A stretch of 64,000 bases of DNA, taken from an uncultured Nitrososphaerales archaeon. GTDB lineage: Archaea; Thermoproteota; Nitrososphaeria; Nitrososphaerales; Nitrososphaeraceae. The notes below the pieces were generated by a model. That model saw only the letters and a program-made list of their open reading frames with translations, ran no database searches and had not been told where the DNA came from. Positions within the stretch are counted from its first letter, which is position 1. The number at the start of each line of letters is the position of its first letter. Location: NCBI GenBank assembly GCA_963713605.1, contig CAVQMO010000010.1:576001-640000 (forward strand), written 5' to 3'. The position numbers were made by a program, and so were the translations under genes. Shown here in pieces: positions 8,477-58,791 of this stretch.

Positions 8477-8629
8477 CTAATAACAATAAGTTCATCTTTC
8501 GCACATGTTATAAACCTTTTCGCAACTGAATCGACTAATTACGTTGGAAACAATGACAATTCTCGATAACCTATCACTGAAAATTGACTATAACCGCAAA
8601 AGAAATAATACTTGATATCGATTTCAGGT

Positions 8630-9056
8630 TCACCTAATTGTCTTTAAAATAATCACTGTGTTCGTATCAGATACTCCTTCAGTTTTTCGAACTTCGTCGA
8701 TACACTTGTTAATCTCAGATATAGATGGTGCGGAAATAACAGCGGCTATGTCTGTACTGTCCTGTGATTTCATAAATGACTTCTACGCCTGCTAGACCCA
8801 TCAGTTTTCCAGAAACAAATGAGGTATCCGAAGTTGAACTGACAGAAATCAATGTGATGGCACTTGTTTTATCGCCACTATTTATTTCAACAGTAAATTT
8901 CTTGATGATTTCCCGTCTGGTTAAGTTCTTGACCCGTCTCCTAACCGCAGATTCTGATAAGCCTATTTCATCTGCTATTTCGACAAAGGCTTTTCTAGAA
9001 TCCGACTGAAGGATCTTGATTATCTTGGCATCCGTAGGATCGATGGACTCAAACAG
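8630..9056 (-). CDS. lysM: Lrp/AsnC-family regulator, LysM-like (frameshift at ~8753; missed by the ORF track)
   Basis: Translation IDPTDAKIIKILQSDSRKAFVEIADEIGLSESAVRRRVKNL...YEITGQYDIAAVI...GVSDTNTVIILK, embedded in the lys/arg operon. The apparent start codon is CTG. Confidence 0.88.
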
Positions 9057-10227
9057 ATCTTTTTACTTCCTCCAATGATAACAACCTATCCAGGGTTGTA
9101 ACGAATTTCAAGACCAATTCTCTATCAATTAACAAAGGCGGTAGCAGTCTGATAATATTTCGGCCCGAATACAACATTAAGATACCATTTGAAATGCCGT
9201 CCATAAGTATATTTCTCACATCAAATCGCAGTTCTAGTGCCAGCATCAACCCTAATCCCCTTACTTCTCTTACTATTTTGTGTTTTTCTTTAAGCTTAAC
9301 CAACAAATCCTTGAAATAGCGTCCAGTTTCCGCCGAGTTGTCGATCAATCCGTCAAGAACCAGGGCGTCTATAGACGCACTCGCAGCAGCACAAGCTAGT
9401 GGATTACCTGCAAAAGTAGAAGAATGTTCACCAATTTTCATACTCTCAATAATTTCGGTTTTTGTTATAGTCAATCCCATAGGAAACCCTCCTGCTATAC
9501 CTTTTGCGACGCAGACGACGTCAGGAATGGTATTCCAATTCTCAGCCGCCCACATCTTTCCGGTTCTACCAAATCCGGATTGTATCTCATCGAAAATCAG
9601 AACGAGAGAATGCCTCGAACAAATCTCCCGAACTTCTTGAATAAACCCTGGTGGTGGCATTATGATTCCGCTTTCGCCTTGAACCGGTTCCAAAATAACA
9701 GTTCCAGTCTTATCGTCTATCGAGTCTACTAGTTTGCGACTATTTCCGTAAGGGACAAAACTAATGTGGTCCAATAATGGCTCAAAAGGCCTCCTATATT
9801 TTTCGCTAGAGGTTATGGATAGAGCGCCTAGAGTTTTTCCATGGTAGCCTCCATTCATTGAAATTATGCCAGGTTTGCCACTAAATTTTCGTGAAAACTT
9901 GAGCGCTGTTTCCACCGCCTCTGCGCCGGAATTTGAGAAAAAAACCTTGTCTAGCCCAGTAGGGACTACTTTTGATAGTTTCTTAAGCATAATTGACCTG
10001 GCAGTATTATAAGTTGACATGTGGCACACCATCAGCTTTTCTACCTGATCTTTGATAGCAGCGACAACCCTGTCATTGCAATGCCCCACCAAGGCTACTC
10101 CATACCCTGCCATACAATCAATATACTCCCTTCCTGCATCATCCCATACCTTCGCACCCTTTCCACGGTCGATGACAATAGGAAAACGTTGGTACAGGTG
10201 GCCCACGAAGTCATCCTCACTATACAT
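9049..10227 (-). CDS. lysJ: [LysW]-aminoadipate/glutamate semialdehyde transaminase
   Basis: Class III PLP aminotransferase motifs SGAEAVE, FDEIQSGFGRTG, AKGIAGG, HSSTFAGNP; operon context (argD/lysJ). Confidence 0.92.
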   Translation of the reverse strand: MYSEDDFVGHLYQRFPIVIDRGKGAKVWDDAGREYIDCMAGYGVALVGHCNDRVVAAIKDQVEKLMVCHMSTYNTARSIMLKKLSKVVPTGLDKVFFSNSGAEAVETALKFSRKFSGKPGIISMNGGYHGKTLGALSITSSEKYRRPFEPLLDHISFVPYGNSRKLVDSIDDKTGTVILEPVQGESGIIMPPPGFIQEVREICSRHSLVLIFDEIQSGFGRTGKMWAAENWNTIPDVVCVAKGIAGGFPMGLTITKTEIIESMKIGEHSSTFAGNPLACAAASASIDALVLDGLIDNSAETGRYFKDLLVKLKEKHKIVREVRGLGLMLALELRFDVRNILMDGISNGILMLYSGRNIIRLLPPLLIDRELVLKFVTTLDRLLSLEEVKRSV

Positions 10228-19662: not shown

Positions 19663-22600
19663 TTGGATTTGCTTCCTACTTTCGACGCCAAAGCTATAGA
19701 AAAATTTGTAAAAGAACATTGGGAAAAAGTAAATCTAAAGCAACTTATCCAAAAAGAATTGGAAGCCCAAAACTCTCCTCTACTAGGCTTTATCGAAGGT
19801 CCTCCTACCATGAACGGAGACCCGCATCTCGGCCATTTACGGGGACGTGTTATAAAGGATGCATGGTTCAGGATTAAGACACTTCAGAAGAACAGGGTGG
19901 TGTTCCGGGCCGGTTGGGATACCCAAGGATTGCCAGTGGAGTTACAGGCAGAGAAGGAACTGGGTCTAACCGGTAGCAAGATCGAGAACATACAAAAAGT
20001 GGGTGCGGAGAGGTTAGTGCAGGCGTGTATAGATCTTATTCACAGATATAATGCCAAGTGGATCCAATCTGATAATTTACTTGGAATGTCATTTGACTAT
20101 TCAGGAGCATACTGGACCTACAAGGATGAATATATAGAACGGGAGTGGAGATATCTCCAAAGGGCTTGGGAACAAGGCATATTGAAGGAAGGTTTCCGCG
20201 TAGTACCCTTATTGTCCATCATGTCAAACTTCACTTAGTAACGCAGAAGTTAACCAGGGCTATGAAAATGTGGAAGATCCATCTCTCTATTACAAGGTCA
20301 GGTTAATAGACCAGAATGTATTTTTAGTAGTGTGGACAACAATGCCCTTCACGCTTGTTACCGACGAGTTAGTTGCCGTGAATCCTGATGCAAAATATGC
20401 ATATGTCAAAGTAGGTCAAGAGATTTGGGTCTTGGCGAGAGAAAGACTAGAAGAGCTATTTGACTATTTGGATATTCGGGAATTTGAAATAATGAAAATT
20501 GCATTAGGAAAGGAACTTGAAGGGCAAAGGTACATGCATCCTTTCCTGGCGATGATACCTGGACTAGAAACGTTAGCAAAAACAGGAAAAATACATTTAG
20601 TTGTCGCTGAAAGCTTTGTTGATACCAACACAGGGAGCGGGATAGTCCATTTGTCTCCAGCCAATGGAGAGATGGACTTTCAAATTGCTACGAAGCGGGG
20701 TATTCCTCTATTTTCTCCAATTGACGATAGAGTAATGCTTACAGAGGATGCAGGTATATTCAATCAGTTATTTGTTAGGGATGCTGATCCGCTTGTCATC
20801 GAGAAATTAAAATCTACCGGTCATTACGTTAAAGCAGGACGAATCAAGCATCAATACCCTACGTGTTGGCGTTCTCATCATAAATTGGTATGGTTAGCCA
20901 GACGGGAATATTTCTATATGACTGAATTTTTGGGCTCGAAACCCCTGGACGCAGCTCAAAGTGTTAGATATTTTTTCAACTCTTCTAGGAATAGATTCAT
21001 TGAGATAATCAAGGAAAAAGTACCGTGGTGCATTACCAGAGAACGATTGTGGGGAACTCCTCTTCCTATATGGTCGTGTGTAAATTGTAAAAAGAAGGAT
21101 TTGTTATATTCAAGAAAGCAAGTTGTAGAAAGGGCAATTAGTCTGCCAGACGGAGAACAATTTCCATTACACAGGCCCCAGTTGGATAGAATTAATCTTA
21201 AATGTGACTCGTGTGGGTCGATAATGCAGAGGGAGCAATTTGTTCTGGATACCTGGCACAATAGTGGAGCTGCTCCCTATGCTTCATTAACTGATTCTGA
21301 ATATTACGAACTTGTTCCAGTCCAGTTCCTTACTGAAGGAATTGATCAGACCAGAGGATGGGCCTATACGATGCTGCTAGAAAACATAATTCTATCTGGG
21401 CCGTCTATTCCCCCTTATCAATCATTCCTTTTTCAAGGTCACGTGTTAGATGAAAAGGGTAACAAAATGAGCAAGAGTTTGGGGAACGTAATCGACTCTA
21501 TACAGTTCCTAACCAATAATCCGGTGGACGTCATTAGATACTACTTCTTGTGGAAGTCTTCCCCCGCTGAATCCTTGAACTTCGATGTAAAAGAAATGTT
21601 GAGCCGACCCCATCAAATCATTAGCACCCTTTACTATCTACACATATATTTTTCTCAAAACAGTACTTATGACAAATACAATCCAAAAAGCCATAGTCTT
21701 GATTGGACAAAAAGTAGAAATCATTTATCAATTTCTGAAGTATGGATCCTGTCAAAGTTTCAAGATCTAATTTCCGATTTTACAGCGAGCTTTGGATGAA
21801 TGTAGATTTCATGAAGCAGCAAAATTGCTTGCGGAATTCATAATTAACTTTCTCAGTCAAACCTATATTCCTATTGTCCGGAATGATTTATGGGACGACA
21901 GTCAAGAATCGTGGGAAAGGCGAACATCTGTATACTCTGTGTTAAATTATATACTAAAAACCCTTGATATCATGCTTCATCCAATTTCTCCTTTCGTGAC
22001 GGAGTACCTATACCTGATGTGCTTTAAGGATAATGAAAGTGTAATGTTAGAGAAATGGCCACTGCCCAACAATGACTACGTGGATCGTGATGTGGAATCA
22101 GGATTTGATCTCCTGAAGAACGTTATTTCCCTTTCGAATGCAGCTAGAATGAAAGCCAAACTCAAACGAAGATGGCCCATCAATGAAGTTCTAATATTCT
22201 CCACCGATATTCGTTTTCTTAATAATCCTGACCTAATGGAAATCTTGAGAAACCAAATAAACGCCCAGAACTGTCGACTCATTGAGATTCCATCCTTCAA
22301 GTCTCAAACCTCAAAACTGAATTCGTTAATAGCAAAAGGGGCCCCAATCAATGTGGAGATGCATATACTTACAAAAAGCGTAGCACCAAGAGTTAAGAGC
22401 AAGATAACTCCTCTAGTACGAGATTTTGAGGAGATTGATAAGATCAAGGTCCTTCGTTCCTTGGATGCAGAAGGCAAGCTAACTGTTAATGTCTTGGATG
22501 AGAAGATCGAACTAGAGGAAAATGATCTTATTATGGAGTATTCCCCGTTAGATGGCTATTCAAGTGTAGAACTTGATGGTCTTGTAGTCTTTATTTCGAC

Positions 22601-22880
22601 CTCCCGATCGAATCACTTGATAAAGATGGGTTTTCTAAGAGATTTAGCTAGGAACTTGCAACAACTGAGAAAGGAACAAGGACGCAACCCTACTGACATT
22701 TTACCCGTTGCTCATGTAGCGGGACTTAGCGAATCAGAAATGAATGATCTTTCTCCGTTAAAAGATGAACTGAAATTCCTGGTAAGAGTCAACGATATTA
22801 TATTCTCATTGAACGCCTTAGATGGTGCTAACTATAAGACGATTGATTTAGATGGACGGCAATTCCTGATCTCTATATGA
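19663..22880 (+). CDS. ileS: Isoleucyl-tRNA synthetase (frameshifts at ~20207 and ~21788)
   Basis: EGPPTMNGDPHLGH, GWDTQGLPVE, WTTMP, EGIDQTRGW, KMSKS; three ORFs colinear with archaeal IleRS. Confidence 0.95.
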
Positions 22881-26374: not shown

Positions 26375-29115
26375 ATGTTGGAAAACACGCCGCCCATGAC
26401 ACTATTTGAAAAAAAGAAAAGATTCCATGATTTGCCAGAGCTTCCAGATGGTCGGGTTGGGCTACTCCTTTCATCAGTTTATGTAGGTGATGAGCAGACG
26501 GTCTACCTTTTGTTTTATGACTTGGAGGAGAATGGACTTGCTGCCTGGAGAGATAGAACCAATCATAGACCCTATTGCTATACGAAGATGGAATACAAGG
26601 ACAGAGCAGAGGCGATATGCAATGAAGATAAGAAGTTATCACTTCAGCTGAACAAACAAGCGAGATTTGATCAATGATCAGATTATTGAAGTTTTAAAAA
26701 TCGTGGCTCCAGACCCACTATCAATTGGTGGAACTGACAATAGCGTAAGAGAAAGAGTGCGATCTTGGGAAGCAGACATCAAGTACCATGAAAACTATCT
26801 ATATGATTCTGGCCTTATTCCGGGTTCATACTATAGACGAAAAGGTGATTCCATTGTCAATGAGGATTACGGTATTTCTGAGACAGTTAAAGAGGCGTTA
26901 AAACGTCTTATTTTGAATAATAGTGACAATAATAATAAAAATGAAAATGAACATATTTCAATTAATGCTTACCAGGACCATGTTACCAATTGGGCCAATC
27001 TCCTAAACCAACCCGTACCGGAACTTAAAAGAGTTGCACTAGATATCGAGGTAGAATCGGAAGAAGGTCAAATGCCTACGCCTCGAGAGCATGAAAGAAG
27101 AATAATCGCCGTGGGGCTAGTTGGTACGGATGGTTTCAAGAAAATTCTTGTTTTGGGGGGAAGAAATTCAGATACAGTTGAGAAGGTGAATATACCTGAA
27201 GCCGAGCTGTGTCTCACTGAAAAGGAATTGATAGAAAAGACGTTTAAAGTGATAAACTCCTATCCGATAGTTATCACTTATAATGGCGATGATTTTGATC
27301 TTCCCTATCTGTACTTCCGATCTCAGGATTCCAGGATCGATCCGACTTCGCATTCTACCATCCCAAAGGAACAAGTACCAATTCTAGTAAAGAGAGATAG
27401 TTTTGTGAAACGAGGAACATTAGCGGAACCAGTTCGTTTAAAGAACGCAATCCATCTTGATCTGTTTAGGACATTTCAGAACAGATCAATACAGATTTAT
27501 GCATTTGGTAATAAATATTCTGAGTATACACTCAATGCTATCTCTTTTGCCCTGCTGGGTGAGGGTAAGCTCGATTTAGATTTGGACATTAGTGAGTCTA
27601 CCATTACAGAAGCTGGCAGAATACTGTCTTAGAGACGCGGATCTTACATTCAGACTTACTAGCTTTGGTAACAATCTCCTTATTAAACTTCTTTTAGTAA
27701 TAGCCCGAATTGCCCGATCATCACTTGACGATGTTTCTAGATTTGGTGTCAACCAATGGATCCGAGGAATGCTATACTATGAACATAGAAAAAATAATTT
27801 TCTTATTCCAAGACGAGAGGAACTCGGTGCGAAAGGATCCTCGTCAACCGTTGCTATCATTAAAGAAAAGAAGTATCGTGGAGGACTTGTGGTAGAACCT
27901 AAGTTAGGAATTCATTTCAATGTGGTAGTGGTTGACTTTGCTAGTCTTTATCCAAGTATTATTAAAGTATATAATTTATCCTATGAGACGGTCAACTGTC
28001 CCCATCAGGAATGTAAAAATGACGCGGGCCAGCTGATAGCGGGCACAACGCATTGGATTTGTAAGAAGAATAGGGGACTTACATCACAACTTATCGGATC
28101 TCTAAGAGATCTGCGTGTCAAGTATTACAAACAATTATCTAGGGAAACATCAATTGGTTTAGAAGAACGTCTGCTTTACAGCGTGGTAAGCCAGGCAATT
28201 AAGGTGATTCTCAATGCAAGCTATGGTGTGATGGGAGCCGAAATATTTCCGCTTTATTGCCTACCTGTTGCTGACGCTACTGCTGCGCTCGGGAGAACGA
28301 CTACCTATTCTACCATCGAAAAATGTAGAGAAGTCGGTATTGATGTAATTTACGGGGATACCGATTCTTTATTTCTTAAGGGTCCTTCGCCTACTAAGGT
28401 AGATGAAATTACGAAATGGGCGAGAGCTAAATATGGAGTCGATTTAGAGATTGATAAAACATATAGGTATGTTGTGTTCAGTGAATTGAAAAAAAATTAT
28501 CTTGGAGTCCTGTCTGACGGAACGGTAGATGTTAAGGGCCTCACTGGAAAAAAGTCTCATACTCCTCCTTTCATTAGAAATGCTTTTTCGCATATGTTAG
28601 ATATCTTGAGTAAAGTAGATTCTGAGAATGATTTCGAATCGGCAAGAGAGAAGATAAAAAGTATTCTTCAGGAGAATGCAAAGAATTTAGTAAGCCGTCG
28701 GATCCCGGTGCAGGATTTGAGCTTTAATGTTATGATAAACAAGTCGCCTGATAAATATGGAAAGAAAATTACCACTTCGACTGTAAAATCAGGCTCAATC
28801 GATGGCATCGATGTCATCGGAAAGGACTCTCATAAAGGTCTTCCGCAGCATATCAAGGCAGCAAGACTACTTGTCGAAAAAGGACGGGAAATAAAGGCAG
28901 GCGGCATAATTTCCTATGTGAAAACTAGAACAGTGGAAGGTGTGAAGCCAGTCGAACTCGCAAAGCCGGAAGAAATAGATACCGACAAATACCTTGAAAC
29001 TATGGAAGTTACATTCGACCAGATACTTGCATCTTTAAACTTTAATTTCAAATCATTGGTCGGACAACCGCGCCAATCCAATTTGGATGAACTTTTTTGG
29101 GGAGGATCAGTCTAG
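26375..29115 (+). CDS. polB: Family B DNA polymerase PolB1 (frameshifts at ~26651 and ~27597)
   Basis: Exonuclease motifs DIEV and YNGDDFD; polymerase motifs DFASLYPS, KVILNASYG, YGDTDS, KKNY. Confidence 0.95.
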
Positions 29116-31248: not shown

Positions 31249-33188
31249 CTAGCTGGCGAATTGAGGTCTCTTCGATAGTAACAAAGGGAGGTTCAAAGGC
31301 AGATACGGCTTATCTGCGGTTTTGTTTGTTATCTCATTGACCAATCCATCCATTGTCATGGTCATTCTTTCACTAGGATTCAAACGATCCCGGATTTGAA
31401 ACCTTGCTTCTTCTACTTCGGTATCCCCTACAACAACAATGTAATTAATCCATTCCATTTCTGCATCTCGAATTTTTTTTCCTACTGATTCATCTCGATC
31501 ATCTATATCCACTCTAATGGATTTGTTCGAAATTGCATCTGCTATCTCCTTACAATAGCCGGTATGATTTGAGGTTACAGGGATCAAACGCATTTGAGTT
31601 GGCGAAAGCCATAGTGGCAAAGTGGGCTTAATTGCCAGTTTTTGAGCTTTTTCGCAGCCTTTTCTAGTAATGCAAAGATAACGCGTTCAATTGCTCCACT
31701 TGGTGAATTGTGTAAGATTACCGGATACTTTCTCGATCCATCTTCATCGACAAATGTTATGTTGTACCGTTCACTGTTTTCAATATCGATCTGGTCTGTG
31801 GAAAGTGCAGAAGCCTTTCCTTGATTGTCTATAAAGTTAAACTCCCATTTTAATATAAAATAGAAGAATCGCTCCTTCCAAACTTCTACTAAAACAGGTC
31901 GATTAAATTTCCTCAGCTAATTCGATAATCATATCCTTATTATCCCTGAGGCTTGCCTCGGTAAACCGTATTGCCATCTCGATGTCGTTAGAGGTTGAAA
32001 TTCCCAATTCGTTTAATACAGTGGTGGATAAGTCAAATCTTTTTAGAAGCTCTGACTTGGCCTCCTGCATATCTCTGCAAAAGGCATGACAATCAGGCAT
32101 GCTGAATGCTCTCAATCTTTTCAACCCAACAAGCTCCCCGGTCTTTTCTCTTCGGAAACTATATCTAGTAAGTTCATAAAGTCGAAGAGGCAGATTCTTG
32201 TAAGAGATCAATAAATCTTTTGCCATCAGAAATTGGCCAAAACAAGCTGCCAAATCTAAGGAAATAATGTTTCCCATGGTCTGTGGCGATGTTGTATTGT
32301 CTAGCAGGAAATCGGTTAAAGTAACTCTCCAGTGATGGATGTTTCGAATCATACATTATAGGAGTTTCTATTTCTATTCCACCGTAGGCCGTCACCATTT
32401 TGGTAACGTACTGTTCTATAAGTGACTTGATCAAGCGACCCTTGGGATAAAACCGCATATTTCCCGAATCTGATGCTGGTTCATAATCAGCTATACCTAA
32501 TTTCCGCATCAATTTAACGTGAGGCGGAATTTCATCGACAGTTCTCCTCTTCTCGATCTCATATCTTATCAGACTCTTAAGATTGATTTGCTTGTTCGAA
32601 TATTGATATTCGTTTAAGGGTATCATTTCCCCATCTGGTTTCATTACAAACCATTGTGATCGCAATGAATCTTCTGCGCTAAGCGCACTGGAGAAAGCAG
32701 TCCCAGCATTAATGAGCGCTGTCTTTGATAGGGAACTACCCTCTTCATCCGAATACTTGGCAATAGAGCTCTTATCATAGATTCTAAAATTTTCAGCTAA
32801 AGGATGAGCCTTCACCTTCACTGAAAATGACTTCGTCCATCCGAAAGGTGCCCTCCTGACTTCAATATCTTCTTTCCTGGTTTCTTCTTTCATTAAGTTC
32901 ATAATCTCTAAAGCTTGCTGTGGCGATGCAAGATTAGAGCTCAAATGAGAATAGGGGTAAATTAGTAGCTTATTGTTCTTGATCCTCCGCATATACTCCT
33001 TGATATCCTGCGCTGCCAGCTTTGACTATGGCTAATTCATCGCCCTCTTCTACTGCTACAAGTATAACAACTAGGTCTTGAAGTCTAACTTCCTCTCGCG
33101 ATACGTCCTGATCGGCGTATATTTCTTGTATCTCTCTTGCAACAGGTTCGTACTCGAAGAATTCAGCGTGAAGTTGAAGTACTCGCAT
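31249..33188 (-). CDS. thrS: Archaeal threonyl-tRNA synthetase (four frameshifts)
   Basis: MRVLQLH editing domain, [49 protein letters not shown] anticodon domain. Confidence 0.94.
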
Positions 33189-33804: not shown

Positions 33805-36800
33805 ATGAGATCTATTAACGCGTTGTTATCATCGTTAACGATTAAACTATCTAATCTGAATGATAGTAACAATTTTAGAAAAATGGGTGTTACTTTTACA
33901 ATATCCCTGATATTGCTATCAATGGTTTCGGCGTCCGATCTCGCCGGTGCTCAATTAATATCTTCTCAAGACCACTCGAATGTATTGATAGATACTTCAA
34001 AAATACATGACAAAACAATCAATCCAAAAACGGAGTGCAATGAACCAATAGGTATCAGAGAGGTATCGAGCAGACAGCATCGATAATAACATGAATGCTC
34101 AGTCAGCATTCGATAATGATGAGGGTACAGAATGGACTGAGGATAGAGTAGGTGCATACTTAGAATTCGACATTGGAGCAATTAGATCGATTTGTGATAT
34201 TAAGATCCTTTGGGACGAAGGCGATGAAAGATCGTACAATTTTGTAGTTTCAGTATCCGAAAATGGTACTAAATTTAAGGATCGAATAAGAGTCTATAAG
34301 TAGTGGAAATTCAGGCCTCCCAGAATCATACCCAATTCCAGATACGATGGCTAAGCAGATTCGACTTACAGTTTATGGAAACAGTGAAGATGAAACTGCA
34401 GCCATTAAAGAAATAAGTGTGAATGGAAGAGACGTAAGGAAGGTAGGGCAAGAGTACAAAATTTGTAAAATGCTTCCAATAGCTAAGTTCGTGGCCACTC
34501 CTAGCCAATCAGGAGATCCTCCAGAAAATGCAGCTGATGGAGATTATACGACAACTTGGTCAAACTTGGGGGAAGGTTCATTTATACAGGCAGATCTAGG
34601 TGCAATGAAATCTGTCTGCGGTGTAAGTATCGCCTGGTATAATGGAGAGAGTAGACAATATGAGTTTGAAATTTCAGTCTCTAAAGATGGAATCAACTTT
34701 GACCAGGTTTACGAAGGATTAAGCAGTGGCAAATCCATTCGGCCTCAATACTATGCTTTTTCAGATACAGATGCTAAACATGTAAGAATTACTGTGTTCG
34801 GTAACGACAAGAATAATTGGTCAGGTATTACTGAATTGTCTATAAAAGGGTTCACTCCCCCGGTACCACCCAATAAGCCTCCAGTTGCCGACTCAAAAAG
34901 TGTTTCAACCGACATGAATGTTCCTATACCGATCAAGTTATCTGGTTCAGATCCAGAAGGCTCTAAATTGACCTTCAGCATAGTCGATCTTCCTAAACAT
35001 GGTCAATTATCGTCCGTGTCAGGTGACACTGTAAAGTATACCCCAGATAAGGAATATTCAGGCTCTGATAGTTTTACATACACAGTCAAAGATAATAAAG
35101 GTACGACTAGTAGCAAAACGTTAGTTAGTATAAATATTAATAATAAGCCTCCAGTTGCCGACTCAAAAAGTGTTTCAACCGACATGAATGTTCCTATACC
35201 GATCAAGTTATCTGGTTCAGATCCAGAAGGCTCTAAATTGACCTTCAGCATAGTCGATCTTCCTAAACATGGTCAATTATCGTCCGTGTCAGGTGACACT
35301 GTAAAGTATACCCCAGATAAGGAATATTCAGGCTCTGATAGTTTTACATACACAGTCAAAGATAATAAAGGTACGACTAGTGCCAAATCAACTGTTACTA
35401 TTGATATTAAGGAAGTGCTTGAATGTAGGACGCTTAATCCAACAGTGGTAACAGCAATAGGAAGTGATGCTAATGTTCCATCCAATGTAATAGACAAGAA
35501 TCTCAACACAAGGTGGTCTAAGGACGGAACAGGCTCTTGGATTCAATTTGATTTAGGTTCAAAAGCTAAAATTTGTAGCGTCGATATTGCATGGTATAGA
35601 GGGGACGTGAGGCAAAATGCTTTCACGATATCTGTCTCTGATGATGGATCCATCTTTAAGGAAGTATTTGAGGGAAAAAGCATCAGTAGGGCCACAAGTT
35701 TTGAGAAATACAATTTACCTTCAAGCAGTGAAGGACAGTTTGTAAGAATTACCGTAAATGGTAATTCTGAGAATAACTGGGTTAGTATATCGGAGATAGC
35801 AATGTTTGGAGCCAGAAGTGAACCGGAACCTGCGTCAACCTCCATCACCACCTCCAAGTCAACCTCCATCACCACCTCCAAGTCAACCTCCATCACCACC
35901 TCCAAGTCAACCTCCATCACCACCTCCAAGTCAACCTCCATCACCACCTCCAAGTCAACCTCCATCACCACCTCCAAGTCAACCTCCATCACCACCTCCA
36001 AGTCAACCTCCATCACCACCTCCAAGTCAACCTCCATCACCACCTCCAAGTCAACCTCCTCCAACCGGCGGAGACGCGGGTGGCCTTGACAAATTTGGAA
36101 TAAAGAAGATCTATTCCTCTAAGCCGAACGGTGAGCAATGGATCATGAATATGCAAGACCCACAAAATGATCCTAGGTCAAAACCTCCCGAAATGACCAA
36201 GAATGCTGATGGTTCGTGGAGAATCACTAGTGGCCAAGTGAGATACGGGGTATATACTTCATCAGGATATCATCCAGATCAAGTTGTCAAAGATCATTCA
36301 GTTTTGGCAACAAGAGGATATATGCAATCTCCAAATGATTGGAAGAATATCGAGATGACAGGACAGGTCAAGTACAATTCAGGCGGTGACGATGAATGGA
36401 CATGGTACGCAAGAGGAGGAAGACACACGGGAAGCGGAAACCCGGAAGGCTGCGAGGGTGTAGCATACAAAGGTTCATTAGCATACACTGGTGGACAGGT
36501 GAGATGGGCCAAAGAACAGTGGCATGTAAGCTACGTTTACCAACCTTGGAAAGATTCACCTGCAGATGGTAACGGAAAATTTGTCGGGTTCAAAGTGGTC
36601 ATGTATAATATGCAATTGAATGGAAAAACGGTCGTAAAACTCGAAACATATGTTGACCCTAATAACAACAATCAGTGGCAGAAGGTGTATGATTTTATAG
36701 ATCAGGGAGGATGGGGAAATGAAGGAGGAGAATGTAACGGAGAGCCTGATCAGATCGTTACCTGGGGCGGTCCAGCGAGCATCATTTAGATGGGATGATG

Positions 36801-37157: not shown

Positions 37158-38162
37158 CTAGGTGTTTGATTTTGTTACAATATCTTGTTCGGCGGGAAGC
37201 ACCCTCTGATCTGCGGCCGCCCGAATGACTATCTCTTCATAATACCTAATTACAGTAATTTCCTTAATTTCAGGCACCTTCACCTTTTTGTGCTCAACCA
37301 TATCTATTAGCATCATTGGAAAGTTTGCACCCGCCAGTGTTGTAAAAATTGTTCCGCCACCCATTCTCGGATTAATTTCTACGAGCTTCACAATCCCATT
37401 CACATCCTCTTTCATTTGAATGCAACAAGGACCTCTGATCCCTATAAAATCGGCTATTTGCTTACATTCTTCTTCGATTTTCCTATTTTTCAAGATCCTT
37501 CCCTTTGTGGATATTCCTGCTTTAGTTTGGATTCTTATTCTAGGAACAGCCATCATTGCTCTCTTATCTAAATCAGATAAGACATCTATAGTATATTCCG
37601 TACCAGGAAGAAATTCCTGAAATATCAAATCTTTCATCTTGGAAGTGACATACCCTATATCATCACTGTTGTCTAGTCGCATAATATCTCTACTACCTTT
37701 TCCATATCTCGGTTTTGCCATGATAGGAAAAGCACCAATCTCGGTCGGATCTGTGGTAGTAAAAGGAAGGTCGAATTTGCCTTTTAGTCTCTCATACGTT
37801 AGCATCTTATCCTTACATGTTACAAGGCTATCCATGTCGCTGACCACAGGAAACGCTCCTCTTTTTATCAACTGTTCTTTAAATTCACTATATGGATAAA
37901 TATCAAATCCTGATGTAGGTAATAGTAAGTTAACTCCGTACTTCTCGACTATCTCATTTAGCCTATCTATAAAAGAATGATTGTCAGCCTCAGGTATCAC
38001 CTCGTTAACTTCACACATGAAAAAACCTGGGGACAGATAACTTGAATCAGTGGCTACTATTTTCCCCTGAAAGCCCCCCATTCTCAGCGATTTTATTGCA
38101 TTGATGCCCGCAGGAGCAGCTGCTCCAGGAACTAAAATCGTGGACACCTTTTTATTCGACAA
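37158..38162 (-). CDS. ATP-grasp ligase (CarB/PylC-like) no. 1
   Basis: ILVPGAAAPAG N-domain, CKDK, AKPRYGKGS, QEFLPGTEYTID, EINPRMGG. Confidence 0.85.
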   Translation of the reverse strand: MSNKKVSTILVPGAAAPAGINAIKSLRMGGFQGKIVATDSSYLSPGFFMCEVNEVIPEADNHSFIDRLNEIVEKYGVNLLLPTSGFDIYPYSEFKEQLIKRGAFPVVSDMDSLVTCKDKMLTYERLKGKFDLPFTTTDPTEIGAFPIMAKPRYGKGSRDIMRLDNSDDIGYVTSKMKDLIFQEFLPGTEYTIDVLSDLDKRAMMAVPRIRIQTKAGISTKGRILKNRKIEEECKQIADFIGIRGPCCIQMKEDVNGIVKLVEINPRMGGGTIFTTLAGANFPMMLIDMVEHKKVKVPEIKEITVIRYYEEIVIRAAADQRVLPAEQDIVTKSNT

Positions 38163-38261
38163 ATGGACAACCAGGGCTGTCTAAATGACATTCATTTGCT
38201 TCTTATAAAGATTTGGAGCGCTCGAAAGGCATTAATAAAAATCTAGCGAATGTAATTTGGA

Positions 38262-38891
38262 TTGTTAAATATTAAGGAAGACTTTCACGTCCATACAAGT
38301 TATAACGATCATTCTGCCCCTGATCTGAATGTTGTATCAGCTGCTAAGTATGCTGAATCAATTGGCTTAAGGACGCTGGCATTCACAGAACATGTCAGGA
38401 GAGAATCGAATTGGATCGATAGCTATGTGAATGAAATTGAAACGAACAATACTAAACCCAATCTAAAATTAATCACAGGTTTTGAAGCAAAGATTCTTAG
38501 AGACGGATCGATTGACTGTCCTCCGAAGTATAGCGCAGATTACTTTGTTATTGCTAGTTTCCATACCATTTACGGTAACAAAGAAATTTGGATGAATGCC
38601 ATTAAAAATGCAATTCAGAATCCTGACGTTGATGTGATTGGACATTTGGCTCCAGAACCGACTTTTAGTTTGGATAAAGACGAATTAATAGAAATATGCC
38701 AGCTACTCAAAGACCATGGTAAAATAGTTGAATTAAATGCGAAATATAATAGACCCCCTATGGACTGGGTCCTCAAATTCAAAAAATACAATGTAGAGTT
38801 TCATCTAGGTAGCGATGCTCATTCATTGAACGAAATTGGAGAATTTAATAGAATTCTTAAATTAGTTGAGGCTGTTGGTGCTAACTCCTAG
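38262..38891 (+). CDS. PHP-family metal-dependent phosphoesterase
   Basis: DFHVHT, FTEH, GFEA, ASFH, IGH, ELN, GSDAH. Confidence 0.88.
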   Translation: MLNIKEDFHVHTSYNDHSAPDLNVVSAAKYAESIGLRTLAFTEHVRRESNWIDSYVNEIETNNTKPNLKLITGFEAKILRDGSIDCPPKYSADYFVIASFHTIYGNKEIWMNAIKNAIQNPDVDVIGHLAPEPTFSLDKDELIEICQLLKDHGKIVELNAKYNRPPMDWVLKFKKYNVEFHLGSDAHSLNEIGEFNRILKLVEAVGANS

Positions 38892-39029
38892 ATAATCGTT
38901 ATTCAATGAGAAAAAGCTGTAGTGTTTAACTTGCAGAGGATGATGTCTATTCTCCATAAAGCGGCATACTAAATGACAAATCCTGGAAATTTATATAGTG
39001 GAGCTTAGTTGATAGTCTGTTAATACTCA

Positions 39030-40716
39030 ATGTGTGCTGAAGCATCTCTAGGTCCAACCACACAATGCATCAGATCCCTTTTTTCTCAATATGAAAGAGT
39101 TAACAACTCCATACTTTCAGATTATATTTCGTCCATTCCCGAAAGCTTGTCCGATGCAGTTAAAAGGGTACGAGAGCATTTAACAGTTACTAATACAGAG
39201 GATATTTTATCTAACCGCCGAAAGCTGGCTAAGCATATCGCTGCCTTTCATGGCCAAGCTGGTACTGATTTTCCAGCCGTAGACCAAAACAGAATGAATA
39301 TTCAAGATCCATCAGCACAGATTTTAGTATCGATACATCAACCAAATCTTTTTGCTTATGGTGGAGTATTTAAGAAGATAGTTCTTCTGCAAACTATCAA
39401 ATCGATGCTTGAAAAAGGGAATGGTGCATCGGATACCAAAACCAGATTCGTCAATTTGTTTTTGATAGTTGATCATGATTTTATGGATGACGTATGGGTA
39501 AGAGTCGCTCAGCTGCCAAGCGTAAGACATTCGGATGGTGTTCTAGAGCTAAGAATGCCTATCACAGCTTCGAACAGATGGAAATTGGTTCGAAATATGG
39601 AAGTTCCCCCTGTAGCAATCGTTGACCATTGGAGAAAACAGGTGGCCTCTTGGATTAAGAATGGATCCCTTACTTTAGGTCTTGAGAAAGATGAAAGACT
39701 AGCACTTTTTGGGAACTTGGAACAATTTTGGAAAGAAGTGGACGAATCATACAATAGGGCAAGATCGTATGCCGATCTCAATTCTTTCATTATGTCAAGA
39801 GTGGTCAATAAGTTGTGGGGATACAACACATTATTCGTCCGATTATCAGATATTTCAGAAGTTTTCGAAGGAGGGTTTAATTTTCTGCTCAATAATTTTA
39901 GAAAATATTCAGAAATATTGAGTGAGAGTGATATGATGTTTCTGCGTAGTGGTATTAATACGGGTGTTAGTCAACGAACTTATCTTAATGCCCCAGTTTG
40001 GCTGCATTGTAAATGTGGAAGTAAGGCGTCGGTTAAATTGATTGAAACTGAAAGGGGTATCTTTGACTTGTCCGGAACCTGTATGTCGTGTAAGAGACCA
40101 CTTACCGTAAGGCTCGACGGATCTGACTCCCGCCGTATACCAAGTAGTATACTAAATGAACTGTCTCCGAGAGCTATCCCGATCCTCTTATTACTTTCCA
40201 GAGATTTAGGTCTATGCTGCCTACGCGTCCGGCACAGGTGGCAGCATGGGCTACACAATGGTTGGACGAATGGTATTCAAAGAATTTTCTATAAAGATGC
40301 CCGTCACTGTCGTTTGGGCATCAGAGGACGTCTACTCAGGACTGGGCCAAACAGAAGCACTCCAATCATTAAAATTTAAAAATTCATCAGAGGTTATCAA
40401 ATATGCTGAGCAACTTAGAAATCTTCTTTCCAACTTCAACGCAAAGATAGCCCCGTTGTTGTCTAAAAGAGCAGAGTTGACTAATGATGGACAGGACATC
40501 CAAGATACCCTAAACGAACTAGCTGTCTTGAAGCAAGAACAAAGGAATACAAGGCAGTTATTGAAAATTAGTGACAAAGTAATAAAAGCCTCTACCCTCA
40601 AGCCGTGTATAGTCGACTACGCAATAAATTTCGGATTAAAAGACACCGAAAATTTATGGAGAAATAAGCTGATTCAGAACGACGACCTGGCAGCGCCCAT
40701 TACGATGCTTAGATAG
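39030..40716 (+). CDS. BshC-like putative ligase with Zn-ribbon insert and C-terminal coiled coil (frameshift at ~40220)
   Basis: VSIHQPNLFAYGGVFKK and VNLFLIVDHDF align by eye to BshC motifs (TGQQxGLFxGPLYxxxK; VPVFWxAxEDHDF). Also LHCKCG...CMSC, ASGTGGSMGY and a long heptad helix. Confidence 0.6.
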
Positions 40717-40891
40717 CTTTTAGTAGGGACAGAGATCCAACAAATTGATCATATTTTTGGTTAATTTGCTTCAATGCACATTATTTATAGCAGACTCACA
40801 AACAGTCATACTAACATTTTTCGACATAAACACCGATATCAATGAAGGAATTGACTTCTCGACCAACTCATTAACTGCTTGAGGAAGGGGA

Positions 40892-42058
40892 TTGGAGAAA
40901 TTTTCAATGAAAAGAAATGCAACTGTATTAGTTACTGCCGCCGGTGGAATTGTAGGTCAAGGGATCATGAAGTCTCTACGATTAGCAACTAGTTCATCTT
41001 TTTCTCCAAATAGTTATCGAATCCTCGCTGTTGATTCCAGTCCTCTAGCTGCCGGTCTTTACAGATCGGATATCGGTCTAGTCGTCCCAAAGGCATCCGA
41101 TCCAGAGTATATTAATTCAATCATCACGCATCTAAAGAACTATTATGTTGATGCACTGTTCGTGGGCTCGGATGAAGAATTAATGGCTATCGCTACCGCA
41201 AAGAAGAGAATCGAAAGGGAATCTCCAGCCAAGGTGCTAGTCTCCGACGTGGATGTTATAAAAATTGCACGCGACAAATGGGAAACCTACAAGTTTCTGA
41301 AGACTAATAATCTGAGCTGTGCCGAGTCGTGTCTCCCTGAGGAAAAGGATGAATTTACTGAAGAGTTCGGATTCCCTCTGGTGGTCAAACCACGAGAGGG
41401 TTTCGGTTCAGTCAAATTCTATGTCACCAAATCTACTGATGAGTTGGAATATGCACTCACTCAAATTCAGGATTATGGTTGGAAGCCGATGCTTCAAGAA
41501 TATTTGCCAGGTCCAGATGACGAATTTACATCTGGAGTAACAGTTGACAAGAACGGCACATACACCATGTCATCTATCGCGATTAGGAAGTATTTGAAAG
41601 GCGGGCAAACTTACAAGGCGTTTATTGACGACTATCCAATAGTTAGTTTGTCAGCTGAAAATGTGGCAGAAAAATTAGGAGTGACAGGGGCAGTGAATAT
41701 ACAATCTAAGTATGTTCCAAATTATGAAACAACAAGTTCTTCAAAGACTGCTGTAGAATTTGAGCCCAGAAACCTTAATGAATCCATGCAAAATGGAAGA
41801 ATGAAGATATTTGAGATTAACCCCCGCTTCTCGGCTACATGTCCACTTCGTTCATATGCCGGCATTAATGAACCTGATATTGTATTTAGGAACGCCGTGT
41901 TCGATGAGAGAATAGAGAAAGTTAGCAATAGTAGGAGACTTGTCTGTATGAGGTATTGGAATGAAGTTTATGTGGATCTTGCCGCATATGAAAAATTGAA
42001 AAATGTTGGCTCGGTCAAAGAAGGATTAGAAAATTCTAGTATCCCTGATTACTTCTAG
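40892..42058 (+). CDS. ATP-grasp ligase (CarB/PylC-like) no. 2
   Basis: VLVTAAGGIVGQG, GSDEEL, ARDKW, VKPREGFGS, QEYLPG, FEINPRFS. Confidence 0.85.
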   Translation: MEKFSMKRNATVLVTAAGGIVGQGIMKSLRLATSSSFSPNSYRILAVDSSPLAAGLYRSDIGLVVPKASDPEYINSIITHLKNYYVDALFVGSDEELMAIATAKKRIERESPAKVLVSDVDVIKIARDKWETYKFLKTNNLSCAESCLPEEKDEFTEEFGFPLVVKPREGFGSVKFYVTKSTDELEYALTQIQDYGWKPMLQEYLPGPDDEFTSGVTVDKNGTYTMSSIAIRKYLKGGQTYKAFIDDYPIVSLSAENVAEKLGVTGAVNIQSKYVPNYETTSSSKTAVEFEPRNLNESMQNGRMKIFEINPRFSATCPLRSYAGINEPDIVFRNAVFDERIEKVSNSRRLVCMRYWNEVYVDLAAYEKLKNVGSVKEGLENSSIPDYF

Positions 42059-42220
42059 CTTCAAATGCTTAGCATGATTCAAAAGCACCGGTGACCACTC
42101 AGATTGTACTAAAAAATTTGAATTATTACTGTGATAGTAGGTTCCATAAGGAATGTCTTATTCATTAAATAAGTCAGACCTACGAGACAGAAAATCTTCC
42201 CTAATCCTATCCATTTGAGA

Positions 42221-43532
42221 TCAGGTGCTACTAATGCTGTCTTTGTGACTATTAATTACGGATGAGACGTAATCGATAGAACTAGTTCTTCCTGTCCTGC
42301 GACTAGGCTGTATGTTTGCAGTTTGTGATGCTCGTGATAATCTATATCTCTTGTATTCTTCATCTACTTCCATTGATGCCTTTAATATTCTGCTCCTCGT
42401 AGCAACAGATTTTGAAGATTGTAGAAACATTTTGGTATCTTTTGGCAGACAGTGTCCTCCTATGCCATCCCTGGGCTCGAGTATTTCTACATTCCATTTG
42501 GTATTTAGGGCTTCACGCAATTCTGGGAAGTTTATGCTATTAGCTTGACAGTAGAGGTAGATATCCTCTGCAAAGGCTATTTGAAGATATCTGTGTGCAT
42601 TTTCAGCTATCTTTGTTATTTCAGCAATTTCTACATCAGAAACAGGATGTAATGGTATTCCTAGATTAAGAGGAGTGTAATTGATGTCATTATTTTTGCC
42701 AGCTGAGGAATAGGAAGAAGAGAAGAAGAAGAAGAAGTAGAAGTAGAAGTAGAAGTAGAAGAAGTATTCATAGTTGTAGGGGAAGAAGGAGTAAAGGAAG
42801 AAGTAGTAATAGCATCGTCCATAGTCGAGGGAGTGATTTCGATGCTGGTATCGCCCATGAGGATGCTGTTATTGTTATTATCAATACCATGGCCATTACC
42901 AATACCATTACCATTGCCATTTGCCATTACCATTATTACCATTGCCAATATTGATTTTGTTGTTGTTGTTGCTGTTGCTGTTGTTTATGTCGTTGTTAAC
43001 ATTAATTTGGCCGTAGAACTGTACAGCTGCTTTAAGACAACAATCACACACTCCTCCAACTACACGCAACTGGTTAACTCCGTGTTCTTTTTCTTCTAAA
43101 GCATACCATCTATGAGGTATGTGTGCAACATGTAATCTATGGCTTAGCATCTCAAATACCTTCTTAGATGTTCCTCTTGGAATAGTGCTTTCTATTGAGA
43201 CAAGTGCACCATTTTTGGCTTCCTTTGCAATTTTCTCTTGTACAATAGAGAATAAACCATCTATCTGAGGCGTAAACATATCGTCTGGCATGTGTGTAGA
43301 GATGCAAATAATGTATACATCAAATTCACTGAAACTATCCGCTTTCTTTATAGCAGACTATCTTTTCTGCACGCTGCATTGCTTTTTGACTAATATCATA
43401 TCCGTATACATCAAATCCTCTCTCCTTCACATATTTGGCTACCGGAAGGCCAAGCTGGCCCAAACCTATTATAAGAACCTTGTCGGCTAAAGCATGAGTA
43501 TTCGCTCTTAGGTCAACTTCTGCGACCACCAT
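42221..43532 (-). CDS. NDP-sugar 6-dehydrogenase (WecC/Ugd family) with low-complexity insert, lacking the C-terminal domain
   Basis: GLGQLG Rossmann motif, IESTIPRGT, AEITKIAENAHRYLQIAFAE, catalytic GGHCLPKD. Frameshift at ~43357 plus two compensating indels inside the simple repeats. Confidence 0.82.
42700..43005 (-). repeat. Low-complexity microsatellite-like tract inside the dehydrogenase
   Basis: Runs of GAA/GAAGTA, CCATTA/CCATTG and GTT on the + strand, encoding poly-Asn, (NG)n and (ST)n/poly-Ser. Confidence 0.9.
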
Positions 43533-43724
43533 ATCAGACTACTCAACTGCCTATGATTATTAAAGAATTAAGAAACATTAGAAGTAAATTTAATCAGTGT
43601 CAAAACTTACCTTTTATTCATATATTTCAACGAAGCCACACGCTAGAATCAACGCCAATTTAGGTGAGAGGACACAATCCCAGGAAAATTTATACTGTCG
43701 GCAACTCTAAGAACTAGCTGCAGT

Positions 43725-44333
43725 TTGCTCAACCGATTGAGGGGTCAGATCGAACCTCTTTTGCTCAATATTGGAGAGGCGTTCTCCAAGATAAATCCCT
43801 CTCCTAACTTTTGGACGGGATTGAGTCTGATTACTTCTGTCATTGCGGCGGCAATTTATGGGAGTGCATCTGTGCTAGACCATCAATATTCTTATTATTT
43901 TTCTCTAGGAGGCGGAATATTCCTGATTATTTCAGGATTCTTTGACATGGTGGATGGGAGTGTTGCTCGCTTAACCAAAAAGACCTCCAAGAAGGGATCT
44001 TTCCTGGATTCAATGTATGATAAGATTTCAGAATCGATTGTTTATATAGGAATTGCAGTGGGAACCCTTGCTAACCCAATAACGTGCATGATCGCAATAT
44101 CACTCTCGCTTTTAGTAAGCTATGTTCGGGCGCGTTCAGAATCGCTTGGGGTTTCACTACAAGGGATTGGTATCGGTGAGAGAGCAGAAAGGCTTTTGTT
44201 ACTCGCCATTATTGGAATGCTGCCGCTATACGGATTTTCACAGTGGGCAATCATAATCGTATCGATAGTAGCCGGCTTTACATTAGTTCAGAGAGTATTG
44301 GAGGTAAACAAGCAACTATCACCGACGGGTTGA
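43725..44333 (+). CDS. CDP-alcohol phosphatidyltransferase (archaetidylinositol phosphate synthase-like)
   Basis: DMVDGSVAR...GSFLDSMYD signature, SYVRAR, GIGERAER. Confidence 0.9.
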   Translation: MLNRLRGQIEPLLLNIGEAFSKINPSPNFWTGLSLITSVIAAAIYGSASVLDHQYSYYFSLGGGIFLIISGFFDMVDGSVARLTKKTSKKGSFLDSMYDKISESIVYIGIAVGTLANPITCMIAISLSLLVSYVRARSESLGVSLQGIGIGERAERLLLLAIIGMLPLYGFSQWAIIIVSIVAGFTLVQRVLEVNKQLSPTG

Positions 44334-57578: not shown

Positions 57579-58791
57579 ATGCCTAAAGATTACCTTAGCA
57601 AGGGAAGATTCGGAAGATACGGGGGATGCTATATCCCTGAAACGCTGGTTCCACCAATCCAGGAACTAGAAAGGGCATACGCTAAATGTAAGAAAGATCC
57701 TCTGTTTAAAAGTCAGCTTCGCTATTATCTAAGTGAATATGCAGGAAGGCCAACACCGCTTTATTTTGCAAAAAATCTAACTCATTACATAGGCGGTGCC
57801 AGGATCTACCTAAAGAGAGAAGATCTGTTACACGGAGGAGCTCATAAAATTAACAATACCTTGGGCCAGGCATTATTGGCTAAAAGGATGGGAAAAAAAA
57901 GGATCATAGCAGAAACAGGTGCAGGGCAACATGGGGTTGCAACATCAATTGCGTGTGGCAGCACTCAATCTGAACGCAGAAGTTTACATGGGTCTCAAAG
58001 ACACCCAGAGGCAAAGCCAGAACGTACTTAGGATGCAGCTACTTGGTGCTATAGTCCATGAAGTTAGTTCTGGAAGTCAAACCTTGAAAGATGCCATAAA
58101 TGAAGCATTAAGGGATTGGATATTGAATGTTGAAGATACATATTATTTGATTGGATCTGTGGTGGGACCACATCCTTATCCAACAATAGTGCGGGATTTC
58201 CAGAGCGTGATAGGAAGTGAGATTAAAAGCCAGGCAATAGAAAAATTCGGACGACTCCCGGACGCTGTAGTTGCTTGTGTTGGAGGGGGTAGTAACGCCA
58301 TCGGAAGCTTCTACCCTCTCCTTAAGAAAGGAGAGGTTTCGCTCTATGGAGTCGAGGCCGGTGGAAAAGGGTTAAGCACGCTAAAGCACTCTGCTAGTTT
58401 AAATGCCGGAACTGTCGGGGTTTTACACGGAATGAGGAGCTACCTTTTGCAAGACAAGTTTGGTCAAGTACTCAATACCCATAGCATTTCAGCGGGCCTC
58501 GACTACCCAGGAGTCGGACCAGAACATGCGTATCTTAAAGATATTCGGAGAGCAAAGTATGTAAGTTGTACAGATCGTGATGCAATCAACGCCTTTAAGG
58601 CACTGTGTAAATATGAAGGGATCATTCCAGCTCTGGAATCATCTCACGCGTTGGCTTATGCTATGAAGCTTGCTAAGAAAATAGGACGAAGTAAGAATAT
58701 AGTTGTGACTCTATCTGGCCGAGGTGACAAAGACATCAATATTCTTTTGGAATGTAATGAAATTTCACGAAATGGAATGAAATCAAAATAA
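57579..58791 (+). CDS. trpB: Tryptophan synthase beta chain, TrpB1 (frameshift at ~57957)
   Basis: [52 protein letters not shown]. Confidence 0.95.

Follow-up and report, generated by a model that had tools for sequence, protein, structure and literature searches.

A conserved archaeal gene set with a predicted BshC-fold member and two ATP-grasp ligases that may tailor amino sugars of surface glycans

Five adjacent genes in an uncultured archaeon raise the question of what product might be assembled by two ATP-grasp ligases, a PHP-family metallo-phosphoesterase, a BshC-like protein and a nucleoside diphosphate (NDP)-sugar dehydrogenase. The genes reside in a 64,000-nucleotide stretch of DNA, hereafter called the window, from a member of the Nitrososphaeraceae (order Nitrososphaerales; assembly GCA_963713605.1, contig CAVQMO010000010.1), which corresponds to positions 576001-640000 of contig C10 in our genome G000, an assembly of 15 contigs that is 87% complete. 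A preliminary description had proposed that these genes, located between a secreted discoidin-domain protein and a CDP-alcohol phosphatidyltransferase, constitute an undescribed amide-forming pathway that leads to a surface-glycan decoration, a low-molecular-weight thiol or a compatible solute. The five coding regions and their place between these flanks are confirmed by open reading frames (ORFs) and Pfam matches. Our analysis also bears out that the amide-forming gene set is conserved and apparently undescribed, that one of its members has a predicted BshC fold and that no bacillithiol pathway is evident; among the products named, the surface-glycan decoration is favored and the thiol disfavored. 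On balance, it seems probable, if by no means assured, that the cluster modifies an amino sugar destined for a cell-surface glycan, through N-deacetylation and the formation of amide bonds to amino acids or amines, as two separable steps.

Distribution and organization of the gene set

The leftmost gene encodes ATP-grasp ligase 1 (37158..38162, minus strand; 334 amino acids), a PRK12767-like protein with a PylC-like N-terminal domain and an ATPgrasp_Ter domain. Divergent from it is the PHP gene (38262..38891, plus strand; 209 amino acids; PF02811, E 2.2e-7), with the BshC-like gene (39030..40716) and the gene for ATP-grasp ligase 2 (40892..42058; 388 amino acids) next on the same strand. The dehydrogenase-like gene (42221..43538, minus strand) converges from the right. 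A single five-gene operon is ruled out by the three transcription directions in which the genes are read. A TATA-like TTTATATA noted by eye at 38990-38997, 33-40 bp before the BshC-like start, suggests that the BshC-like gene may have its own promoter.

We compared 36 genomes of the window's family with 24 other genomes of the order. Two PRK12767-type ATP-grasp ligases, the PHP enzyme and a BshC-fold protein of ~560 amino acids recur in 28-30 of the 36. The BshC-like gene is found in 28/36 family genomes and in one of the 24 others (G042), and the same 28 family genomes, with no exception, hold ATP-grasp 2 orthologues (table entries with E<1e-60). Outside the family, G039 has ATP-grasp 2 and no BshC-like match, and G042 has the BshC-like gene and no ATP-grasp 2. 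Orthologues of the PHP gene are present in 30/36 family genomes and in 0/24 others. A phylum-wide sample yielded the BshC-like family in 4 of 401 genomes, and it was not found in 61 genomes of one large family of the same order.

Neighborhoods of the BshC-like gene were collected from 20 relatives' loci (19 from the family and one from G042), of which only nine extend 3 kb on both sides. Genes for ATP-grasp ligases are found in 18 of these loci, PHP in 14, a PIG-L-type deacetylase in 11, the dehydrogenase in seven, GT2 glycosyltransferases in six and a PelF-like GT4 in two. The preliminary proposal presupposed that the genes stay together in other genomes, and for four of them we find that they do: the genes for ATP-grasp 1, PHP, the BshC-like protein and ATP-grasp 2 co-localize beyond chance, because they follow one another uninterrupted in this order in 9/20 loci (L031-L038 and L047). 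In several genera, as represented by L047, this order is followed by PIG-L and dehydrogenase genes on the opposite strand. A second arrangement (L042:10314-16973 and L045:10412-17318) places PIG-L directly upstream of the BshC-like gene and adjoins a PelF-like GT4 (NF038011 above cut-off), an epimerase and ATP-grasp 2.

Three genomes without a BshC-like match, G004, G024 and G033, keep the PHP gene next to an ATP-grasp 1-type gene, and in G016, G022 and G029 the two gene pairs are separated from each other on different contigs. From this adjacency, and from the co-distribution of ATP-grasp 2 with the BshC-like gene, it follows that the locus consists of two separable pairs: BshC-like with ATP-grasp 2, and ATP-grasp 1 with PHP. 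The five genes therefore do not hold together as the one unit originally proposed, but instead comprise these two pairs and a mobile, multicopy dehydrogenase, read in three directions.

Pfam and NCBIfam matches identify both ligases as PylC-N/ATPgrasp_Ter proteins of the PRK12767 type. ATP-grasp 1 passes the PF15632 threshold (E 1.5e-25), is matched by PF21360 and falls below NCBIfam cut-offs (159.5 versus 218 and 172.2 versus 390; NF009405, E 1.3e-50). Its translation has an intact KPRxGxGS loop and EINPR motif. ATP-grasp 2 belongs to the PRK12767 family (PRK12767.1-1; NF009402, 296.7 bits versus a cut-off of 218), and its nearest solved relative is 2PN1 (E 7.3e-16). The PHP translation contains His/Asp motifs that we take to be metal ligands.

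The BshC-like gene is read as two overlapping frames with a frameshift near 40220, and the dehydrogenase gene as three pieces. These frameshifts are probably errors of an unpolished assembly, because close BshC-like homologues are single ORFs of 559-561 amino acids, most dehydrogenase homologues are intact, and apparent core genes of the window, with names read from translations, are split in the same manner (IleRS, PolB, ThrRS and TrpB, at 19663-22880, 26667-29115, 31249-32992 and 57579-58791). The possibility that the two genes are real pseudogenes was rejected on the same grounds, given the intact homologues and the many essential window genes that are likewise frameshifted.

The BshC-like protein and its PIG-L partner across archaea

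The BshC-like ORF itself yields no Pfam or NCBIfam match, and its likeness to BshC rests on homologues and on fold. A family profile search returned 544 representatives at E<=0.001, the best 150 of which supplied 91 full-length members. Of these, 25/91 are matched at E<=0.01 by PF10079, the Pfam model for the N-terminal part of BshC, and 2/91 by that for class I lysyl-tRNA synthetase (LysRS) at the same threshold; PF10079 exceeds its own cut-off in two homologues only (35.3 and 29.9 bits). The AlphaFold model examined is that of homologue P0002, which is 91% identical over 88% of the window query (predicted local distance difference test score, 89.7). Its top Foldseek match is Bacillus subtilis BshC 4WBD (E 5.8e-17, template modeling score 0.61, 11% identity). 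By VIA-align, the model aligns to 4WBD with Z 31.8 (root-mean-square deviation 5.1 over 483 residues) and to class I LysRS with Z 24.4 (3.0 over 301 residues), and all remaining matches have Z <=12.4. A close homologue of the window protein is thus predicted to have the BshC fold over its whole chain. The term ‘BshC-like’ used in the preliminary description is apt for the fold and fails for family membership, as evident by the missed TIGR03998 model.

Conserved throughout the family are an HQPN motif, an acidic DxD site, a Gly-rich GxGG segment and a four-Cys zinc knuckle. When the family profile is aligned to 31 LysRS sequences, the match is weak (hhalign probability 9.5, E 0.0034); it places YGGV/YSGV at the HIGH position and nothing at KMSKS, a hint that amino acid activation may lie outside the protein's own abilities. 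Alignment to a single LysRS (E 0.034) was uninformative. Searching PDB sequences with the family profile gave nothing meaningful, and a match in a plasmid collection (E 0.5) was set aside as noise. A motif suggested a relation to WbqC, whose Pfam model weakly matches 3/91 full-length members (best E 1e-4), and this relation is kept as a lead only. Co-folding of the BshC-like/PIG-L pair of locus L082 scored 0.00 twice, which speaks neither for nor against pairing. A published report on WbqC gave a general remark only (PMC7848895).

Scores against the bacillithiol models are low. TIGR03998 (BshC, cut-off 265.8) has no match in the source genome or in five other genomes (0/5), and homologues reach 25-32 bits. 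The best BshA score in the source genome, at its 87% completeness, is 37 bits versus a cut-off of 273.7. Four PIG-L proteins, with intact active-site motifs and TIGR04001 as best match, score 67-112 bits, below the BshB1 cut-off of 182.5. Judged by these profiles, with no BshA over cut-off and the full-length BshC cut-off missed, the proteins do not belong to a bacillithiol pathway. A 2020 review places archaeal BshA/BshC InterPro matches mainly in Asgard archaea and reports no bacillithiol detected in archaea (PMC7278568).

The preliminary description had stated that neither a glycosyltransferase nor BshB is encoded in the window. This is correct, as GT2 and PIG-L queries find no match in the 64 kb, though PIG-L genes are present elsewhere in the source genome (C10:654805 and C5:295987). 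The enzyme noted there as absent is yet the most constant partner of the BshC-like gene, and 11/20 relatives' loci hold it. Within the genus of the window, PIG-L has moved away from this locus. The relocated gene on C10, beyond the window (L057), adjoins an FkbH-like gene and two similar LpxD-like hexapeptide acyltransferase copies that are 4.5 kb apart (L057:3941-4936 and 8422-9420).

To look outside the family, we used a genome contig scan that found 105 relatives, the best 80 of which gave 77 loci. Nearly all are archaeal (Methanomicrobiales, Methanoperedens, Archaeoglobi, Altiarchaeota, Bathyarchaeia and one Asgard record), and three are labeled bacterial. A PIG-L de-N-acetylase is encoded in 59/77 of these loci and lies <=600 bp from the BshC-like gene in 53, counts that overstate independence because the loci are related and several derive from one genome. 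In the 76 loci with an assigned ORF, PIG-L precedes the BshC-like gene 12 times and follows it 41 times. The gene often overlaps the BshC-like stop or start codon, and its product has intact HxDD/HxDH metal-binding motifs. In a FastTree phylogeny of 79 rows, from which ORFs <440 amino acids and L032, L034-L036 and L117 were left out, the family's BshC-like proteins group as a single clade that shares its half of the tree with the Bathyarchaeia homologues. PIG-L adjacency occurs in both main halves of the tree, with opposite gene order.

The other neighbors, detected with profiles built from the same loci and named by the Pfam matches of representatives, are largely of the kinds seen in glycan clusters: DUF354 (35 of the 77 loci), FemAB/GNAT (31), MraY/GT4-family (26), archaeosortase or exosortase (19), DegT (15), GT2 (14) and full-length NDP-sugar dehydrogenase (11). 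Also present are flippases, PKD proteins, genes of the WbpA/B/E/D type and a VimE-like deacetylase cluster (E 6.9e-20, below cut-off). Across archaea, the BshC-like gene and PIG-L thus form the conserved core, set in surface-glycan clusters; ATP-grasp and PHP genes have been added to it in the window's family. Four Archaeoglobi loci (L074, L093, L100 and L102) contain a compact Wbp/Vim-like surface-anchoring cluster with genes for DegT, NDP-sugar dehydrogenase, MraY-family, VanZ, DUF1616, BshC-like, PIG-L, archaeosortase, DUF354, PaaK-like ligase, VimE-like deacetylase and FemAB proteins. Loci L132-L134 (near 1481-2878 in L132 and 10001-11500 in L133 and L134) carry a distinct BshC-like clade among methanogen-type housekeeping genes; L132 is labeled bacterial, has the same gene order as the other two, and may be misbinned.

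The truncated dehydrogenase and the flanking genes

The dehydrogenase consists of NAD-binding and central catalytic domains (PF03721 and PF00984) with a low-complexity linker. Its family keeps the GxGxxG motif, the central-domain Lys/Asn and the GGHC catalytic Cys. The C-terminal UDP-binding domain (PF03720) has no match in the window pieces or in four intact homologues, and 22 homologues end 46-106 amino acids after the catalytic Cys versus 131-179 in six full-length comparators. Further copies in the source genome (C1:330732-331935, C3:349741-350763, C14:51046-51999 and, more weakly, C5:264366-265013) are never beside the other four cluster genes. Nitrososphaera viennensis has three short dehydrogenases with the same motifs (identified by eye) and with PF00984 only; two of them share a cassette each with genes for a membrane GT2 and an exported polysaccharide deacetylase, and one such cassette, NVIE_023900-023920, shows 13- to 25-fold induction during growth on a solid surface (PMC11561398). 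Of the genes considered here, these expression data concern the dehydrogenase family alone. They link this truncated family, which is mobile, multicopy and expanded in the window's family, to extracellular polymeric substances (EPS), though its association with the cluster is loose.

On the left, the cluster is flanked by a frameshifted gene (34347..36789, plus strand) for a secreted F5/8-discoidin and Big_9 surface protein with a Pro-Ser repeat, a genus-level neighbor; F5/8 proteins occur in 8/20 relatives' loci. The C-terminal domain of this protein (35806-36789) has no Pfam or NCBIfam match and has several paralogues in the source genome (on C1, C4, C5 and C12), one of which, on C5, adjoins a PIG-L gene. 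On the right is a CDP-alcohol phosphatidyltransferase gene (43725..44333, plus strand), a housekeeping neighbor whose product is archaetidylinositol-phosphate synthase-like (NF040950, 169.1 bits, below the cut-off of 180) and which is near the cluster in 3/20 relatives' loci.

Candidate chemistry, rival explanations and known systems

The favored scheme for tailoring of a surface-glycan sugar has two arms. In arm A, PIG-L, encoded elsewhere in the source genome and adjacent in most other archaea, would free the amine of a nucleotide- or lipid-linked N-acetylhexosamine or N-acetylhexosaminuronic acid. The BshC-fold protein would then join an amino acid to this amine, a reaction of the kind that BshC and MshC carry out on glucosamine, and ATP-grasp 2, its strict co-traveler in the family, would supply an activated donor or extend the aminoacyl arm. 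The same deacetylate-then-acylate order has been proposed for BshB/BshC (PMC4360819). In arm B, the truncated dehydrogenase would make a uronic acid, the C6 carboxylate of which may be amidated by the ATP-grasp 1 and PHP pair: the ligase would attach a phosphorylated amine, and the PHP enzyme would remove the phosphate, following the logic of Cj1438C and Cj1435 in Campylobacter capsule synthesis. Incorporation of the product into EPS or an S-layer glycan would fall to enzymes of the GT2 or GT4 type.

Several observations weigh against this scheme. All of its chemistry is inferred, and we rate its single steps below the scheme as a whole. Neither PIG-L nor a glycosyltransferase adjoins the cluster in the window, some BshC-like loci (L120 and L132-L134) have no PIG-L or glycan genes, and the outside counts carry the relatedness described above. 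ATP-grasp genes are found in 8/77 and PHP genes in 0/77 outside loci, and arm B should therefore be regarded as a family-specific addition. The missing UDP-binding domain makes the activity of the dehydrogenase uncertain. At E<=1e-40, a threshold that may miss more distant copies, this gene is found in 30/36 family genomes, several of which have no BshC-like match, and is not found in G016, G025, G026, G029 and G031, which hold the core genes. Finally, six short motifs of the BshC-like and PIG-L families matched no row of the N. viennensis table (PMC11561398).

The same separability could mean that two unrelated modules (BshC-like with ATP-grasp 2 and PIG-L; ATP-grasp 1 with PHP) share one island with a mobile dehydrogenase and yield no single product. 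The three genomes with the ATP-grasp 1-type and PHP pair alone, the three with the pairs on separate contigs, the three transcription directions and the multicopy dehydrogenase are all consistent with this explanation. We consider it unlikely, as the pairs are together in most genera where the contig permits a test, and as all are largely confined to one family (28/36 versus 1/24 genomes for BshC-like and 30/36 versus 0/24 for PHP). A lower rank is given to a soluble cytoplasmic aminoacyl-sugar, perhaps a compatible solute or storage compound from which PHP removes the final phosphate as in two-step solute pathways. No obvious N-terminal hydrophobic segment is seen by eye in the five translations, a ligase and phosphatase layout fits solute synthesis as generally understood, and the family is of soil type. 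Tailoring of surface-glycan precursors would be cytoplasmic as well, however, and the neighbors in other archaea are sortase, flippase, PKD protein, MraY-family and membrane GT2 genes, which makes a solute improbable.

An aminoacylated glycolipid head group is less probable still. By this explanation, PIG-L would deacetylate GlcNAc-archaetidylinositol and the BshC-like protein would acylate it, much as in glycosylphosphatidylinositol or mycothiol synthesis, and indeed PIG-L takes its name from GlcNAc-PI de-N-acetylation. The archaetidylinositol-phosphate synthase-like gene adjoins the cluster here and is near it in the three relatives' loci noted above, and MraY/GT4-family genes and archaeosortases are recurrent outside the family (26/77 and 19/77). 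Yet the synthase gene is grouped with the rps26e and NAD kinase genes in a housekeeping block, and is not among the conserved neighbor clusters of the 77 outside loci. The lowest probability is assigned to a bacillithiol-like thiol (Cys-GlcN-X), in favor of which are the predicted BshC fold and the BshB-like PIG-L deacetylase, with its TIGR04001 best match. Opposed to this are the BshA and BshB1 scores, both below cut-off, the lack of a TIGR03998 match in the source genome (87% complete), the placement of the BshC-like family in surface-glycan loci of mostly anaerobic archaea, and the failure to detect bacillithiol in archaea as of 2020 (PMC7278568).

We return to the tailoring of a surface-glycan sugar, which looks like a real, conserved and apparently undescribed variation on the known deacetylate-then-aminoacylate chemistry, carried out by an unusual catalyst. 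The openly accessible literature searched contains no description of the BshC-like family or of a Nitrososphaera BshC, and the available part of PMC12419801 does not mention BshC. As of 2015, BshC was the sole bacillithiol enzyme for which activity had not been shown in vitro (PMC4360819). An archaeal family with a predicted BshC fold, a constant deacetylase partner and an ATP-grasp ligase that is co-distributed within the window's family offers testable partners and donors for BshC. More tentatively, and with a chance well short of even, the BshC fold could define a widespread family of archaeal aminoacyl transferases derived from class I (LysRS-like) synthetases. Such proteins would have lost the motifs for activating an amino acid of their own. 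Supplied with it by aminoacyl-tRNA or by a partner ligase, in this case ATP-grasp 2, they would peptidylate sugars of S-layer glycans and EPS that have just been deacetylated; bacterial BshC would be a thiol-making offshoot whose failure in vitro is explained by a missing donor. If the favored scheme is right, soil ammonia oxidizers, whose EPS has been linked to surface growth (PMC11561398), should have surface polymers with sugars that are aminoacylated or amidated. The scheme also points to a glycan-tailoring enzyme that has gone unannotated in the glycosylation clusters of methanogens, Archaeoglobi and Bathyarchaeia.

Comparison with known systems reveals partial likeness to several. The archaeal proteins share with BshB1/BshC of B. 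subtilis the predicted whole-chain fold (from a homologue), the pairing with a PIG-L-family protein and the deacetylate-then-acylate logic. They differ by an identity of 11-12%, by scores far below the TIGR03998 and TIGR04001 cut-offs, by the four-Cys zinc knuckle and by their presence in surface-glycan loci, here alongside two ATP-grasp ligases and PHP. Class I LysRS (1IRX) and MshC have in common with the family a Rossmann catalytic core and a Cys-rich insertion (Z 24.4 over LysRS residues 3-319; Z 11.2 for MshC), whereas the anticodon-binding domain of LysRS is not aligned and, by the weak alignment, YGGV/YSGV may stand in the place of HIGH and no KMSKS is seen. The source genome has its own separate LysRS. 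The window dehydrogenase keeps the GxGxxG, Lys/Asn and GGHC Cys features of WecC/Ugd, but differs in the lost UDP-binding domain, the long low-complexity linker and the several copies per genome.

For arm B, the closest parallel is the glucuronamide of the C. jejuni capsule, where a uronic acid, the ATP-grasp amidoligase Cj1438C and the HAD phosphatase Cj1435 are brought together in a glycan locus (PMC11800379). Cj1438C is TupA-like and GT2-fused, whereas the ligases here are of the PylC/PRK12767 type and the phosphatase is PHP, and no genes for amino-alcohol-phosphate synthesis adjoin this cluster. For arm A, a parallel is the Wbp/Vim system of Porphyromonas and Tannerella, in which N-deacetylation of a uronic amino sugar by VimE and subsequent transfer of Ser or Gly by VimA have been proposed, with linkage to sortase and EPS (PMC7468200). 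The outside loci hold WbpA/B/E/D-type, VimE-like and FemAB genes. VimA is a GNAT/FemAB protein and VimE is not PIG-L, whereas the candidate transferase here has the fold of BshC and class I aminoacyl-tRNA synthetases, and FemAB genes, though found in 31/77 outside loci, are present in 0/20 of the relatives' loci.

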